Source: a virus
Direction: 5' to 3' (one strand)
IMG/VR virus record: IMGVR_UViG_3300009702_000025
Span: 1,580 to 65,579 of that record
DNA length: 64,000 bases
Positions 14,060 through 61,157 of the stretch are shown here, piece by piece (within the stretch, counting starts at the first letter, position 1; every line of letters starts with the position of its first letter). Made by a program: the position numbers and the translations under genes. The notes beneath the pieces were generated by a model that was not told where the DNA came from, ran no database searches, and was given only the letters and a program-made list of their open reading frames with translations.

Positions 14060-15067
14060 TTACGCAGAGCCATGAACGATACCGTTGTGATCTTCGCCGT
14101 CACGCTTAATACGGATCGGCATGATAGCCATGACAACGTACTCGTAAACGAAGCCGCCGTGTGACTTCCACTCAACCAGACGTGGCTGAATACCGTCGAT
14201 GACCTGAATTACATCAGAAGTCATTTGGACCAAAATCACAGTGTTAGCGGGCAGGTAGTAGTTCGTCTTAATAGCTGACAAACCTTCAATCTTCATCAGA
14301 CGTTCCCGAATGGTCCGTCCAGTTGCAGTTGTCGTATCGTAGTCGTCATCCATACGCTGTTGGTAGTTATCAGGGATGTACAGATAGTACGGCCCATACT
14401 GGAAGTCGTCACGAGCGGCCTGCATCATACCAAGAACATCGTCCTTGATTTGCACAGCAGTCCGACCGGTCCATGCACCACAGAGAGTGAAAGCATTCCG
14501 GTGTGGATAGTTCGTGAGACCGTAAAGAGAGCCAGCCCCGCCAGTACCAGTGTTGAACGATCCCTTAACAGCCAAGTCCTCAATGGTCTCAACCACGATA
14601 CGTGTAGCAACATTGGCGTGCTCTGTATCAAGTGGAAGTCCCTGACGACGTGAGGCTTCCAAGTGACGAAGGTTGAGGCGGAAACCCTTATGAACAATCG
14701 GGATCGGGATACTGTCTTGTTCGTAAGTCAGACGATCCCTAATGTCTGCTGCTTCCGCCGTCATGTCCACTTGCGCGGGGTCCATGTCGGAAATACGGTC
14801 CCATGTCAATTGCATAGTGCCCATAGCGTTGCCAAGAGAGTACTTAAGGCCAGCGCCCATCAAATCCGAGATGATAGAGAACCGTTCTTGAGCAACTTGT
14901 ACTACGGCCCTATCATATTCCTCCCACTCATCACGGCGAAGTACCGAAAGAGTGCGAAGTGCTCCCGTGTCCATGCCGGAAGCAAGGAAGCGTTGTGCAA
15001 GGTCTCAATGTGCCGCGAAATTAAGTCCGTTGCCATCGCCTTGTGCTGTGATTAAATCGACGGGCAT
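14060..15067 (-). CDS. Major capsid protein (HK97 fold, encapsulin/linocin-like family); in-frame TGA at codon 21 if started at ATG 15067, otherwise 304 aa from ATG 14974
   Basis: LRRDEWEEYDRAVVQVAQER, PIPIVHKGFRLNLRHLEASRRQG.PLDT, GLTNYPHRN, YGPYYLYIP; AGGGGG RBS only at the upstream ATG. Confidence 0.88.
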
Positions 15068-15120
15068 TAAATGTCCCCCTGTCCTTTCAAACTGTACTAG
15101 TGTGTGATGTGGTCTAGTTA

Positions 15121-15576
15121 TTAAGTAATAGCTACTCGGATGTGAACTTTCGATCCACCACCAGAGTTGTCCACTGCTTCAGCGGCTCGTGCGATCACAC
15201 CAGCAGCCGTTTCAGCAGAAGCCTTCCGTAAAGTACCATCGCCAGCACTTTCCAGAGGGTCATTAATGACAATGGCAGCGGCAGAAGCAGCCAATGTGCC
15301 ATAGACTTCGTTTCCGGGATGCATGACTTCCGTTAAGACACGATCACCAACCGCGTAGGACTGAAGTACACCGTCATTGTAAACGCCGTTACCGAAGATT
15401 TCGTTTTCAATAGCGAACTGAGGCGTAGCTTTGGCACTAGCAGTTGCATGACGGACGGCCTTACCAGTCGTATCGAGACTGACTAGATCGCCCGGTGTTA
15501 TTACTCCGGCAGCTTCGGCTTCACGACGGACGCCAGTGCTTACAGCAATAATAGTACGTGGAGTTGACATATTCAA
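15121..15576 (-). CDS. Head decoration/cement protein
   Basis: Ala/Gly-rich, AAGVITPGDLV..., NDPLESAGDGTLRK; position between protease and MCP. Confidence 0.7.
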   Translation of the reverse strand: MNMSTPRTIIAVSTGVRREAEAAGVITPGDLVSLDTTGKAVRHATASAKATPQFAIENEIFGNGVYNDGVLQSYAVGDRVLTEVMHPGNEVYGTLAASAAAIVINDPLESAGDGTLRKASAETAAGVIARAAEAVDNSGGGSKVHIRVAIT

Positions 15577-15644: not shown

Positions 15645-17210
15645 TTACGCGGCTTTACTGTCTCCAAATACGTTCGGCGGTGCAGGAGCCATGTTCCCAT
15701 CTCCACTCAATTTCTTTCCACCGGGACGTGCACCGTAATTCTTAGGTTCGGGCTGTCCAGATAGGTCACGACTTTCAGCGTCGTCCTCATCGTCATTAGC
15801 TTCAGTGGTGTCACCCAAAAGTGCTGTCATGTTGTCAAGAACTTCGATGTCCATACCTTGCAATTGTTCTTCAGTGAACTTGTTGCCCGGCGCTGACATA
15901 ATTTTGGCGACTGCATCAGTCTTAGCTTTATCGGCAAGCGCAAGGGCAGAAGCGAGTTGCTTCCCAATTTCGCTATTAACACCAACACGCTCCAGAAGTT
16001 CTTCGGTCGAAGATACTTCCAAAGCGTCACCGTCAGTGCCGCCGGTGTCTGTTTTTTTGCTCATATTCTTGTCCTTATTTTCTCCACCATCAGTGGATTT
16101 GGATTTCTTGCTGAGTGGAACAAGCTCGGTTCGGAAGGCAACTTCTTCAGGATCGCCAGACAACAAGACTGCGTTGTCGCCATCAGCTACATATTCTTCA
16201 CGATAGAGTTTGTAGCCCTTACCCGGAACCCAAGTGTCATAGACGACGTAAGTGTCATTGTACGCAAGAAGATAAGCTTCGGAATTATCTTCTCGAATAG
16301 CGTATGAAAGTAGACTGTGAATGTCAGTATTGTAGAGACCATCGGAAAAGCAGAAACGGGCTGCGAACTCTCTGTGACGTGAAAGTTCCGCTTCCGTTTC
16401 TGCTTCCGCAGCCAGCACAGTTGCCGGTTCGTCCTGTTCCGCCGAACAAGAACAAGCCCCATCGCACTGACATCCCCCGTCTGATGACTTTACAGTTTTC
16501 GGGTCGCCCTGCAATCCCCTGTTGCTTCTACCTTTTCTCTTCAGTCTACGTTGATTAGACATATAAACTCTCGCTGCTTTCATTTGGCCACGACTTAGAG
16601 CAATCGGCTCTGCTTCGAATACCGTAAGTCCCGAACTTTCAGTACGGAAAGTACCGCAACCGTCCGCAACAGAGCAAGCGCCGGTCTCGGTAGCTAGAAT
16701 AGCAAGGTGGTCTGGGATCACAATATCCCAAACTCCCTTGTATTGCTTACCTTCGTACTTGCCTTCCTTGCTAGGGTCAGTGTACACAATAGCACCAACA
16801 GAAACTTCTATAGTCTCCCCAGCGTCCAATCTCTCCCACATGTTAGTGATATCATCGCTTTCACTACTGGAAACATGGCCCAAATCGATCCATGCCTCTA
16901 CAATTAGCTTGCCATCTTGTACTTGGCTGTTCATAATGTAGCCAAGCTGGTAGTTCTCAAGTACTTCAGGATCGGACGCCGACAAGAACGAACCGTCTGC
17001 TGCTTGAGGATGGTCAACTACTACAGGCCGACCGTCCCAAGTTTGTGGCCACTTGCCAAATGCTTCAGCAAGTACCAACTCAGGATGCTCGGAGCTACCG
17101 GAGTGACGAACGCCTTCAACAAGTGCAACAACCGGAACTACCAAATAGTTACGGCCATTTAGCACTCGTGTGTCAACGGTTTCACTAGCTGTGCCTTTGA
17201 GTATTCTCAT
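15645..17210 (-). CDS. DUF2213 family prohead protease with C-terminal scaffold region
   Basis: VPVVALVEGV, WDGRPVVVDHP, EVSVG, IPDHLAIL..GACSVADGCG; acidic helical C-terminus. Confidence 0.8.
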   Translation of the reverse strand: MRILKGTASETVDTRVLNGRNYLVVPVVALVEGVRHSGSSEHPELVLAEAFGKWPQTWDGRPVVVDHPQAADGSFLSASDPEVLENYQLGYIMNSQVQDGKLIVEAWIDLGHVSSSESDDITNMWERLDAGETIEVSVGAIVYTDPSKEGKYEGKQYKGVWDIVIPDHLAILATETGACSVADGCGTFRTESSGLTVFEAEPIALSRGQMKAARVYMSNQRRLKRKGRSNRGLQGDPKTVKSSDGGCQCDGACSCSAEQDEPATVLAAEAETEAELSRHREFAARFCFSDGLYNTDIHSLLSYAIREDNSEAYLLAYNDTYVVYDTWVPGKGYKLYREEYVADGDNAVLLSGDPEEVAFRTELVPLSKKSKSTDGGENKDKNMSKKTDTGGTDGDALEVSSTEELLERVGVNSEIGKQLASALALADKAKTDAVAKIMSAPGNKFTEEQLQGMDIEVLDNMTALLGDTTEANDDEDDAESRDLSGQPEPKNYGARPGGKKLSGDGNMAPAPPNVFGDSKAA

Positions 17211-24716: not shown

Positions 24717-25070
24717 TCATAGCTGTGCTGAACTTTCGACGAATAATTGGTAAACAAGACAGTCCGTAATAGACATAAAATCTTCATTCATACGTCGCAA
24801 TTCCTCAACCTTACCCACATTACGTATTACGGTAGCACGCCACCGTTTGAACGTATCGGCCACACGATCCCACGTCCAATTCATCTTCTCCCGTGCGATC
24901 CACATAGCAACGTGGCGTGGCATAGAGCGATGATTGGTTCTGAGCTCATTGATGAAATAATCCTCTCCGACGCGGTAGTAATCGCCTACAACCTCAAGGA
25001 GATCGGTTAAGTCTGGCAGAGTACTCTCTGACATTGTTGTTATCTCTGCGCTAGTAGCCATGTGTGTCAT
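24717..25070 (-). CDS. Stand-alone DnaA C-terminal (domain IV) helix-turn-helix-like protein
   Basis: RSMPRHVAMWIAREKMNWTWDRVADTFKRWRATVIRNVGKVEELR matches the Bac_DnaA_C pattern (R..PRQ.AMY..R......I...F.RDH.TV..A..K.E). Confidence 0.7.
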   Translation of the reverse strand: MTHMATSAEITTMSESTLPDLTDLLEVVGDYYRVGEDYFINELRTNHRSMPRHVAMWIAREKMNWTWDRVADTFKRWRATVIRNVGKVEELRRMNEDFMSITDCLVYQLFVESSAQL

Positions 25071-37697: not shown

Positions 37698-37772
37698 ATG
37701 AACATAGACTTCACAGAGTTATACAACGAAAGCGGAGTAGAAAAATTGTCTATGACCTACCAGTTTTAGGAA

Positions 37773-38060
37773 TTGAAAGTACCCGAAGGACTAGGCTTCC
37801 TGATAGATGGCGAGACTCTGTATAACGGGGAAGCCGACGTTGAGATAGAGGTTCCAGCTACAGTTGACTATGAAGCATATGGATCAACTTACGTTCCACG
37901 TCGTGGTGGAGCGGAATGGTACATTACAGAAATCCGCGTCCAAGATGAAAACGGCACATGTCATACTCTAGCATTAACGGCTAAAGATAGAGCGCTCCGT
38001 GCTTTGTACGATGGACACGGTGACAACATAGATTATGAGGTTATACACCTTGAGCATTGA
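37773..38060 (+). CDS. Hypothetical protein (95 aa)
   Basis: AGGA RBS with TTG start. Confidence 0.55.
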   Translation: MKVPEGLGFLIDGETLYNGEADVEIEVPATVDYEAYGSTYVPRRGGAEWYITEIRVQDENGTCHTLALTAKDRALRALYDGHGDNIDYEVIHLEH

Positions 38061-58248: not shown

Positions 58249-58522
58249 GGCGGACAACTCTGAGTTGGGAGTAACCGACTTTTGCAATAACTGTTTGTTC
58301 TTCGGTGAGTACGATCCGAATGCACCGACCGGGCATTGCAGATTTCGGTTCCCTCAAACTATACCGCACCCGCATAGACGCGAGAATGGTGGGCAGTCGT
58401 GGCAGACAGGTTGGCCGAGCGTAGAGCGGACGGACTGGTGCGGAGATCATGAGCCGTCGCACAAGGTAGTGAAGTCAGCGCGACGTGTGTCAAGGAGATT
58501 AAATAGTGAGCGTGAGAACTAA
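58223..58522 (+). CDS. Small Cys-rich protein
   Basis: CNNCLFF...GHCRFRFP...WPSVERTDWCGDHE. Confidence 0.6.
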   Translation: MSKQSKKNEADNSELGVTDFCNNCLFFGEYDPNAPTGHCRFRFPQTIPHPHRRENGGQSWQTGWPSVERTDWCGDHEPSHKVVKSARRVSRRLNSEREN

Positions 58523-61157
58523 GGGACGTGTACGTAGAGGGAAACAGTCGAAGGTCATAGTTAAAAACAACTGTGACAACTGCCCCTTCAACTCACGTAC
58601 TGTTGGTACTCGCGGGAACCCTAAAAGTAGATTAGTCGTTGTAGGTGAGAGCCCAGGTTCTACGGAAGTCAGAGTAGGCGCACCTTTTGTAGGCCCTAGC
58701 GGCCAATTCCTTGATACTCTTCTTGAAAAAGTCGGCATTCACGAAGAGCCCTTTTATACGAATGCATTCTCCTGTCTCCCTCCACGGTCGAACAAGGAGA
58801 AAAAAGATCAGCTTATCAACGAAGCCTGCAAAGCGTGCTCCACTCGATTGATCGAAGAGATCACATCCCATCCACGCAAACTGATCGTGGCTATGGGGAA
58901 CGCTGCTCTACGGACGCTGACCGGCAACTACAACAGCTACATCACACAAGAGCGCGGTGTTCTACATGCTTCCAATCTGGCCACGGTTGGATTAATCCCG
59001 TGCTTCCATCCAGCCCACATTCTGCGTAACGAAGGTCTGTATCCGCAAGCCCTGTCGGACATGCAGAAGATCGCGAAGATCCTTCAAGAAGAGAACATAC
59101 CGAGCGACCCGCGATACACATACAAAGTACTTTCCAAGGGCAGTGACCTCAAAGCACTAGCCCAAAAGTGCAACAAAGCAGGGGAAGTATCAGCCGACAT
59201 TGAAACTACTGGTCTGAGACGTTTCGATGATGAGTTCATGTGCATTGGGTTAACTCCTATGCCCATACCTCCTCATACATCTAAACAACGGATAGTAGTC
59301 TACATAATTGAAGGTCTTAGCGACTTTAAGAAGTTCCTAAAGTACATAAAAAGTAGTGTGGAGTGGGTTTGGCATAACGGCAAATTCGATTGCACATTCA
59401 TGTGGGCACAGGACAGTTGGATCACAAAGGAGCGCGTACGTATCGATGGAGATACGATGCTGCTCTCCTACTGTCTGGATGAGAACAAAGGCCGTCACGG
59501 CCTCGAACGCTGCATCATGGATTGGTTGGGCGTGCCTGGTTACAAGGACATGCTTGGGGACTACACGAAGATTGGTTCCGACATACACAAGAAAGTCAAT
59601 GTTTCAATGAAGAAGAAAGAGTTTCCTACACATGAAGGGGCGCTCGAATATTGGACACATGAAGTTACGAAGGACAAGGAAGGTATCACGGATGCTATGC
59701 GCGCCCAATATGCACGGGTAGGCTATCCAAAGAAGGCATTTGCCCTTGTGCCAAAGGCAATCCTGAATGACTATCTTGCTAAGGATGTTGTTTATACTGG
59801 TTGGCTGAAGATCAAGCTGCAACCTATGATTTACAATGATCCGCACCTCAAGTCTTTATACTGGGACATGCTGGTCCCTGCTTCTAACGCACTAGGGAGG
59901 GTGGAACTTAATGGTATCCCAATTGACCAAGATCAAGTTCGAAGGAGTGAAAGCGACCTCCTTGCAGGGATCGGACCTTACCTTAATAATTTACGACGAC
60001 TTACAGGAAAGTCCGACTTTAACCCCAACTCTCAGCCTCAAGTTATGGCTGCGCTCACAACTGGAGATGAAAAGAAAGGGATTAAGGGCAGAGGACTTAA
60101 ACTCAAGAAGTCGGATGCAGATACACTTGAGCCACTTAAAGACGACGACGAGTTTGTCAAAGCGCTCATGGAATATCGAGGAAGGCAGAAACTCCTTGGT
60201 ACATACATCAAACCTTACAAGCCCGGACATGGAAAGTCTATCCCCGGACTGCTTGAACGAGGCCGTATTAACACTTCGTACCTTATCCACGGAACTGTTA
60301 CCGGCAGACTTAGCTCTAGCGGACCAAATGTTCAGAACGTTCCCAAGGTCAAGATCATTCGAAGGATCGTCAAAGCACCAAAGGGAAGAATATTCGTCTC
60401 CCTCGACTACAGTCAAGCAGAACTCAGATCACTTGGCGTACTATCAGGAGATGAAGGACTTCTTAGCATTTTTAGATCAGGTCAGGACTTGCATACCGCC
60501 GTGGCAGCACAAGTATTTGGAGAAGATTTTACAGGACTTGACAAGTCCGACGAGAAGCAAGCCTTCAAATGGAAAGAAATCAGAAGATACGCTAAGACTA
60601 TCAACTTTGGCGTTGTTTATGGCGTCACAGCACCAACGCTTGCTGAGAGATTGGGAATTACCGTTGAAATTGCACAATCGCTCATTGATGACTGGTTCAA
60701 AAGCTTCCCAGTCGCGAAAGAGTTCATGGAGGACACGCGGGATGTACGTGAACAGACGCTCATAACCGTCTTTGGACGTAAGCGCCGGTTCCATATTCTG
60801 ACTGGTCAGAACCAGTACGGTCTAGCCAATGAAAGCGGGAACTTCCTGCACCAGTCCATGTGCTCTGACTTCACATTGGAGAGTGCAATCATCCTGTCTG
60901 ATGTCGTGCCGACACTCCCCGGCAACCCAATGCAGATCAACATCATTCACGATGACAACATGTTCGAGATCGACCGTAACAAGAAAGCGGTCATCAAACT
61001 AATTAAAACGGTTAGCAAGACTATGCAGAATGTCCCGCCTTCAATGGGTATTGATGCTATCCCATTCACTGTTGATGCTTCTATCGGTGAGAACTGGGCA
61101 GACCTCAAAGACATCCGCATGGACTTACTGGACCAAGGAAAACTGGTGATACAATAA
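58506..61157 (+). CDS. polA: Family A DNA polymerase with N-terminal family-4 uracil-DNA glycosylase-like domain and 3'-5' exonuclease
   Basis: UDG: VVGESPG, PFVGPSG, HPAHILR; exonuclease: DIETTGL, HNGKFD, DVVYT; polymerase: TGRLSSSGPNVQN, DYSQAELR, RRYAKTINFGVVYG, IHDD. Confidence 0.95.
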   Translation: MSVRTKGRVRRGKQSKVIVKNNCDNCPFNSRTVGTRGNPKSRLVVVGESPGSTEVRVGAPFVGPSGQFLDTLLEKVGIHEEPFYTNAFSCLPPRSNKEKKDQLINEACKACSTRLIEEITSHPRKLIVAMGNAALRTLTGNYNSYITQERGVLHASNLATVGLIPCFHPAHILRNEGLYPQALSDMQKIAKILQEENIPSDPRYTYKVLSKGSDLKALAQKCNKAGEVSADIETTGLRRFDDEFMCIGLTPMPIPPHTSKQRIVVYIIEGLSDFKKFLKYIKSSVEWVWHNGKFDCTFMWAQDSWITKERVRIDGDTMLLSYCLDENKGRHGLERCIMDWLGVPGYKDMLGDYTKIGSDIHKKVNVSMKKKEFPTHEGALEYWTHEVTKDKEGITDAMRAQYARVGYPKKAFALVPKAILNDYLAKDVVYTGWLKIKLQPMIYNDPHLKSLYWDMLVPASNALGRVELNGIPIDQDQVRRSESDLLAGIGPYLNNLRRLTGKSDFNPNSQPQVMAALTTGDEKKGIKGRGLKLKKSDADTLEPLKDDDEFVKALMEYRGRQKLLGTYIKPYKPGHGKSIPGLLERGRINTSYLIHGTVTGRLSSSGPNVQNVPKVKIIRRIVKAPKGRIFVSLDYSQAELRSLGVLSGDEGLLSIFRSGQDLHTAVAAQVFGEDFTGLDKSDEKQAFKWKEIRRYAKTINFGVVYGVTAPTLAERLGITVEIAQSLIDDWFKSFPVAKEFMEDTRDVREQTLITVFGRKRRFHILTGQNQYGLANESGNFLHQSMCSDFTLESAIILSDVVPTLPGNPMQINIIHDDNMFEIDRNKKAVIKLIKTVSKTMQNVPPSMGIDAIPFTVDASIGENWADLKDIRMDLLDQGKLVIQ

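Follow-up and report, generated by a model that had tools for sequence, protein, structure and literature searches.

The window analysed here is a stretch of 64,000 nucleotides, bases 1580-65579 of a viral record of 70,142 bp. On the minus strand, a Shine-Dalgarno run GGGGG at 15079-15075 lies 7 nt ahead of an ATG at 15067-15065. Translation from this ATG gives 20 sense codons, MPVDLITAQGDGNGLNFAAH, followed by a TGA at 15007-15005 as codon 21. Beyond the TGA, ten sense codons (DLAQRFLASG) lead to a second ATG at 14974-14972 (Met32), and the frame then runs through an ORF of 304 aa to a TAA at 14062-14060 (Table 1). Reading of the minus strand revealed no further in-frame ATG, GTG or TTG between the TGA and ATG 14974, and no purine-rich Shine-Dalgarno sequence in the 20 nt ahead of that ATG (CGCTTCCTTGCTTCCGGC). 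An earlier note on this DNA had described a strong ribosome-binding site before ATG 15067, a UGA at codon 21 in frame with the body of a 304-aa major capsid protein, and an internal ATG that lacks a Shine-Dalgarno sequence; the minus-strand reading and the translation bear out each of these points.

Table 1. Features of the interrupted capsid gene, with two further private changes of the record (window positions)
Feature	Position	Strand	Remarks
Full MCP gene	14060..15067	-	335 codons plus TAA; broken at codon 21 in the record
In-frame TGA, codon 21	15005..15007	-	Private base 15007: T on the coding strand, A on the plus strand; relatives GGA (Gly)
Shine-Dalgarno GGGGG	15075..15079	-	7 nt ahead of the gene's true start, ATG 15067-15065
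Internal ATG, Met32	14972..14974	-	Without Shine-Dalgarno; gene callers' start for the truncated 304-aa product
Private codon-196 change, same MCP gene	14480..14482	-	Relatives GGT (Gly), record TGT (Cys)
Second private premature stop	37767..37769	+	Codon 24 of a 120-aa ORF; relatives GAG (Glu), record TAG

The 304-aa ORF matched the Pfam family DUF6260 (PF19774) with an E value of 6.7e-27 over profile positions 6-301 of 301, and gave weaker matches to Major_capside and to Linocin_M18 (encapsulin). An AF2 model of the major capsid protein (MCP) of an intact relative (pLDDT 88.1) has the HK97/encapsulin fold, and the best Foldseek matches to this model were the Sf11 capsid, encapsulins and the TW1 MCP, at E values of about 1e-20. 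The gene is found in the order terminase, portal (PF06381), 521-aa ORF, 149/151-aa ORF, MCP and tail genes. Profile, fold and head-module position all fit, and the interrupted ORF is an HK97-fold major capsid protein of the encapsulin-like DUF6260 family. Both ORFs between the portal and MCP genes gave sub-threshold matches, the 151-aa ORF (15121-15576, minus strand) to Phage_cement_2 and the 521-aa ORF (15645-17210, minus strand) to DUF2213; scaffold, protease or decoration protein are candidate roles for the two.

The nearest cultured relatives are the Brevundimonas phages vB_BpoS-MaInes and StAshley, whose MCP is 38% identical over 94% of the protein, and the host is probably an alphaproteobacterium, as theirs is. 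The phage resembles these alphaproteobacterial siphoviruses in its DUF6260 or encapsulin-like HK97-fold capsid, in a genome of 69-70 kb, and in the order portal, large ORF, small ORF and MCP. It differs from them in being only distantly related at the DNA level, and blastn with the capsid region found nothing similar in the phage collection. For MaInes the annotated MCP has 331 aa; its start lies about 23 codons before the equivalent of Gly21, and the annotated protein includes the N-terminal arm (N-arm).

Homologs retrieved with the read-through protein were 320-370 aa long, not 304, and 65 sequences were aligned. In all 65, at least 26 residues precede the conserved Arg38, where the 304-aa product would have six. 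Asp4, Val/Leu23, Ala24, Arg26, Leu27 and Leu28 are the strongly conserved residues of this arm. The column of the TGA holds Gly in 53 of the 65 sequences and Ser in 6; it is a sense residue in 64 and a gap in one, and never a stop. Phe occupies the column of Met32 in 39 of the 65, Met in 11 and Gly in 9, so that a Met start is not conserved there, and the column of codon 196 contains Cys in none of the 65. The closest distinct homolog (P0003, 74% identity, encoded on contig L002) has GGC at codon 21, and the equivalent site in L002 carries a Shine-Dalgarno sequence, GAGG, and an ATG matching the position of ATG 15067. In the MCP model residues 5-20 form a beta-hairpin and residues 22-29 a helix, with Gly21 at the junction. 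To judge from the alignment, the 31 codons upstream of ATG 14974 are real capsid coding sequence, in agreement with the earlier view that genuine N-arm flanks the stop on both sides. Homologs starting at the internal Met, which the earlier note had named as a refuting case, number 0 among the 65 aligned.

Clustering at 90% identity groups the 304-aa product with a single further protein, P0122, of 335 aa. The read-through translation and P0122 agree at 333 of 335 residues; P0122 has Gly at 21 and, where the record has Cys, Gly at 196. The gene for P0122 sits on the near-identical contigs L003 and L004, one from ENA (ERZ27249683, 33 kb) and the other from Logan (SRR6056608, 7.5 kb). The full comparison set from these two assemblies comprised L003-L006 and L010-L013, the additional contigs being obtained through exact-protein look-ups. 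The contigs span 50,758 of the 70,142 bases at 99.97% identity and without indels, and at 13 positions, some 2.6 per 10 kb, the record has a base found in none of the contigs that cover the site. Base 15007 is G on the coding strand of both contigs that span it, which gives GGA and an intact 335-aa MCP; the two assemblies with GGA may stem from the same reads and may count as one independent sample. The single substitution to GGA that had been proposed to restore the frame is therefore what these near-identical contigs carry. Where the record has TAG 37767, both L010 (Logan) and L011 (ENA) read GAG.

Two further mismatches, at genome positions 4221 (L012) and 9190 (L013), were left uncounted; each lies less than 20 nt from a contig end in the relatives, disagrees with the other assembly and looks like a contig-end error of the relatives. 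No other contig in the gene calls of the protein collection bears the 304-aa product. A related-locus search in viral contigs found no relative, and exact-pattern scans around codon 21 in viral and metagenome contigs gave 0 matches, near-identical records possibly lying outside those sets. Exact look-up of three window proteins gave no match; the DnaA-like and DUF932 proteins among them carry private missense changes in the window. A literature search on the two samples likewise turned up nothing.

The 13 private changes (Table 2) comprise two nonsense, eight missense and two synonymous substitutions and one intergenic one. When mutations of the observed spectrum were simulated on this genome, the neutral expectation was 6% nonsense, 72% missense and 22% synonymous, or about 0.7 : 8.7 : 2.6 of 12. 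The probability of at least 10 non-synonymous changes among 12 is 0.5 under neutrality, 0.004 at dN/dS=0.2 and 7e-5 at dN/dS=0.1. G:C pairs were hit by 11 of the 13 changes (P=0.006 at 46.7% GC), with G:C>T:A accounting for 6/13 and G:C>A:T for 4/13. Polarisation with P0003 (MCP, 74% identity) and P0124 (polymerase, 68%) as outgroups placed the derived state in the record at all six polarisable sites, every one of them non-synonymous (0.5^6=0.016). The polymerase gene holds four of the changes and the capsid gene, 1 kb long, another two. The private changes look unselected. The record is thus shared sequence with scattered changes unfiltered by selection, and the TGA is one of them, an unselected GGA>TGA change that is private to one metagenome-assembled record.

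Table 2. The 13 private substitutions (state in relatives > state in record; window positions)
Position	Change	Effect	Gene
15007	GGA>TGA	Gly21>stop	MCP
14482	GGT>TGT	Gly196Cys	MCP
37767	GAG>TAG, G>T at the codon's first base	Glu24>stop	120-aa ORF 37698-38060 (+)
24404	ACC>AAC	Thr1101Asn	Ribonucleotide reductase
24841	TCG>TGG	Ser77Trp	DnaA-domain-IV-like protein
36976	GAG>AAG	Glu148Lys	DUF932 protein
59256	ACT>CCT	Thr251Pro	DNA polymerase
59596	GCC>GTC	Ala364Val	DNA polymerase
59602	GCT>GTT	Ala366Val	DNA polymerase
59832	GAC>TAC	Asp443Tyr	DNA polymerase
6846	GCC>GCT	Synonymous	Tape measure protein
47044	CAT>CAC	Synonymous	760-aa ORF
57573	C>A (+ strand)	Intergenic	

The private TAG leaves only a 95-aa ORF of the 120-aa ORF at 37698-38060 (plus strand). 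In the DnaA-domain-IV-like protein (24717-25070, minus strand) the record has RWRATV, where near-identical contig L003 has RSRATV; because the Trp is the private substitution at 24841, taking it for a re-specified DNA-recognition signature would be a mistake. Within the DNA polymerase gene (58506-61157, plus strand) the changes Ala364Val and Ala366Val are both C>T and lie 6 nt apart, and the 68%-identical outgroup sides with the relatives at all four private sites. This PolA-type polymerase combines an N-terminal family-4 uracil-DNA glycosylase domain (PF03167) with a 3'-5' exonuclease domain, an architecture common to the homologs found. Its gene call is 769 aa in the record and 883 aa in the relatives; since no stop interrupts the 883-codon frame in the record either, the difference is one of start-codon choice.

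Since the changes show no sign of selection and are biased towards G:C pairs, a technical origin is the most likely, and we infer that the TGA is quite probably a consensus or sequencing error, in-vitro damage included. Its source would be a miscalled base, a wrong consensus or DNA damaged in vitro, in an assembly with shallow read coverage. Oxidative (8-oxoG type, G>T) and deamination (C>T) artefacts yield an excess of G:C>T:A and G:C>A:T changes. The private changes resemble the artefacts of low-coverage metagenome assemblies in being isolated substitutions with no indels, with a G:C bias and with G:C>T:A as the largest class. They also resemble them in being genome-wide, blind to codon position and missing in other assemblies, a likeness seen in the consensus sequences. 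It is the TGA that gives rise to the 304-aa gene call.

The earlier note had offered a sequencing error or a defective genome as one explanation, and this part of it is sustained by GGA in the near-identical contigs, by the 13 private unselected changes and by the second premature stop. The second member of that pair, a real TGA in a defective phage genome or subpopulation with an opal capsid null, briefly complemented by co-infecting wild type or persisting as dead DNA, is the less likely. The TGA base is present in the deposited record, the private changes are GC>AT biased, like natural mutation, and dN/dS near 1 is frequent among very recent variants; moreover, the clustering of changes in the MCP (2) and polymerase (4) genes is mildly unexpected for random errors. 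A real null allele would, however, need about 13 unselected mutations per 50 kb, two of them nonsense, in one apparently virulent lineage. The sister contigs have none of the six polarisable derived states, and the absence of the 304-aa product from all other contigs in the protein collection's gene calls likewise counts against it.

The lifestyle of the phage bears on the same point. Its gene set appears to be of the virulent type, with its own PolA, RNR, ThyX, SNF2 helicase and endolysin, and no integrase was found among the ORFs scanned, which were part of all ORFs. The phage looks virulent, and a capsid-null genome would therefore not be carried passively as a prophage; prophage decay was rejected, there being no integrase among the scanned ORFs. 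The RNR is of class II type with a TSCPD domain, and a dCMP deaminase and a MazG-like protein are also encoded.

As a genetic lesion the TGA resembles the opal nonsense mutants of phage structural genes, in that one base turns an early sense codon of an essential late gene into UGA. Unlike the classical opal mutants, which belong to the laboratory and to suppressor hosts, it comes with no sign of a suppressor host or of allele persistence. Were the allele real, the strong Shine-Dalgarno sequence would bring in ribosomes that stop after 20 codons. Some might restart at AUG 14974, giving a product that lacks the conserved hairpin and helix of the N-arm, and near-cognate decoding of the UGA would yield little full-length protein. 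Neither restart nor near-cognate decoding is likely to supply the hundreds of copies needed per capsid.

It is very improbable that the stop is functional, whether by low-level UGA readthrough or by termination and re-initiation at AUG 14974, tuning the capsid level or truncating the N terminus. The strong Shine-Dalgarno sequence loads the 20-codon frame, and an in-frame AUG follows 10 codons past the stop (30 nt downstream), a distance that fits the range for bacterial termination-reinitiation. Against this, the stop is absent from all 65 homologs and from the 99.97%-identical genomes, and because it is absent from the latter it cannot be a conserved regulatory device. Met32 is not conserved, and a functional stop would cost the gene conserved residues that are modelled as structured (beta-hairpin 5-20, helix 22-29). 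The fold of the 151 nt around the TGA does not stand out clearly (z=-1.5, with 14 of 200 shuffles folding as well), and no Rfam family, SECIS families included, was found near the TGA at E<=1. The same record also carries an unrelated private stop; as this one is a TAG in an unrelated early-region gene, the two share no common codon or module logic.

Programmed readthrough, which the earlier note had put forward, finds no support, as the stop is not conserved: it is missing even in the 99.97%-identical genomes, codon 21 being GGA in the near-identical contigs and GGC in L002, and no homolog has a stop. Its other proposal, a 20-codon leader that forces re-initiation, is likewise unsupported, the 'leader' being the N-arm that is fused to the body in 65/65 homologs, and the column of the restart Met being unconserved, with Phe in 39/65. 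In the Qbeta coat/A1 system a conserved UGA ends the complete coat protein, and readthrough produces a minor C-terminal extension. The present gene shares with coat/A1 a UGA that interrupts a capsid-related frame and is flanked by coding sequence on either side. It departs from coat/A1 in that the stop is unconserved and comes as early as codon 21, where it would do away with the major product.

Hardly any weight can be given to a TGA that is a circulating allele, kept viable by re-initiation at AUG32 or by leaky UGA decoding, with a capsid that lacks its first 31 residues or is made at a lower dose. Were this true, escape from a host defence sensing the capsid N-arm would be a conceivable benefit, and the gene would have acquired Gly196Cys as a further change, adaptive or compensatory.

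Decoding of the TGA as a sense codon, through code 25 (Gly), code 4 (Trp), selenocysteine or late-gene stop-codon recoding, is barely credible: Gly, the aligned homolog residue, is what code 25 would insert, but TGA terminates 39 of the 103 ORFs (TAA 41, TAG 23; coding density 91.5% with table 11), including conserved full-length genes such as the 1173-aa ribonucleotide reductase and ATGA overlaps inside the structural module, and ARAGORN found no suppressor or other tRNA in the window or in the remainder of the 70-kb genome. In addition, this is the sole in-frame TGA seen relative to the near-identical contigs, and Brevundimonas, which the nearest cultured relatives infect, is an alphaproteobacterium with the standard code. 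Code 4/25 and late-gene recoding were thus rejected because TGA is an ordinary terminator and there is no tRNA, and a selenoprotein was rejected because the homolog column is Gly or Ser with no Cys and no Rfam SECIS match was obtained at E<=1. A literature search on in-frame stops in phage capsid genes gave only papers on crAss-like recoding, which are not applicable since TGA is an ordinary stop in this genome. As far as sequence comparison can tell, the TGA is not a biological device: neither programmed readthrough, nor recoding, nor a regulatory leader.

The corrected MCP model has 335 codons, at 15067-14060, and the 304-aa call of the public record is wrong. Other single-base or single-residue findings on this window need checking against the near-identical contigs. 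Where a metagenome-assembled phage shows an in-frame stop in an essential gene, a 90%-cluster mate of read-through length can provide the resolution.
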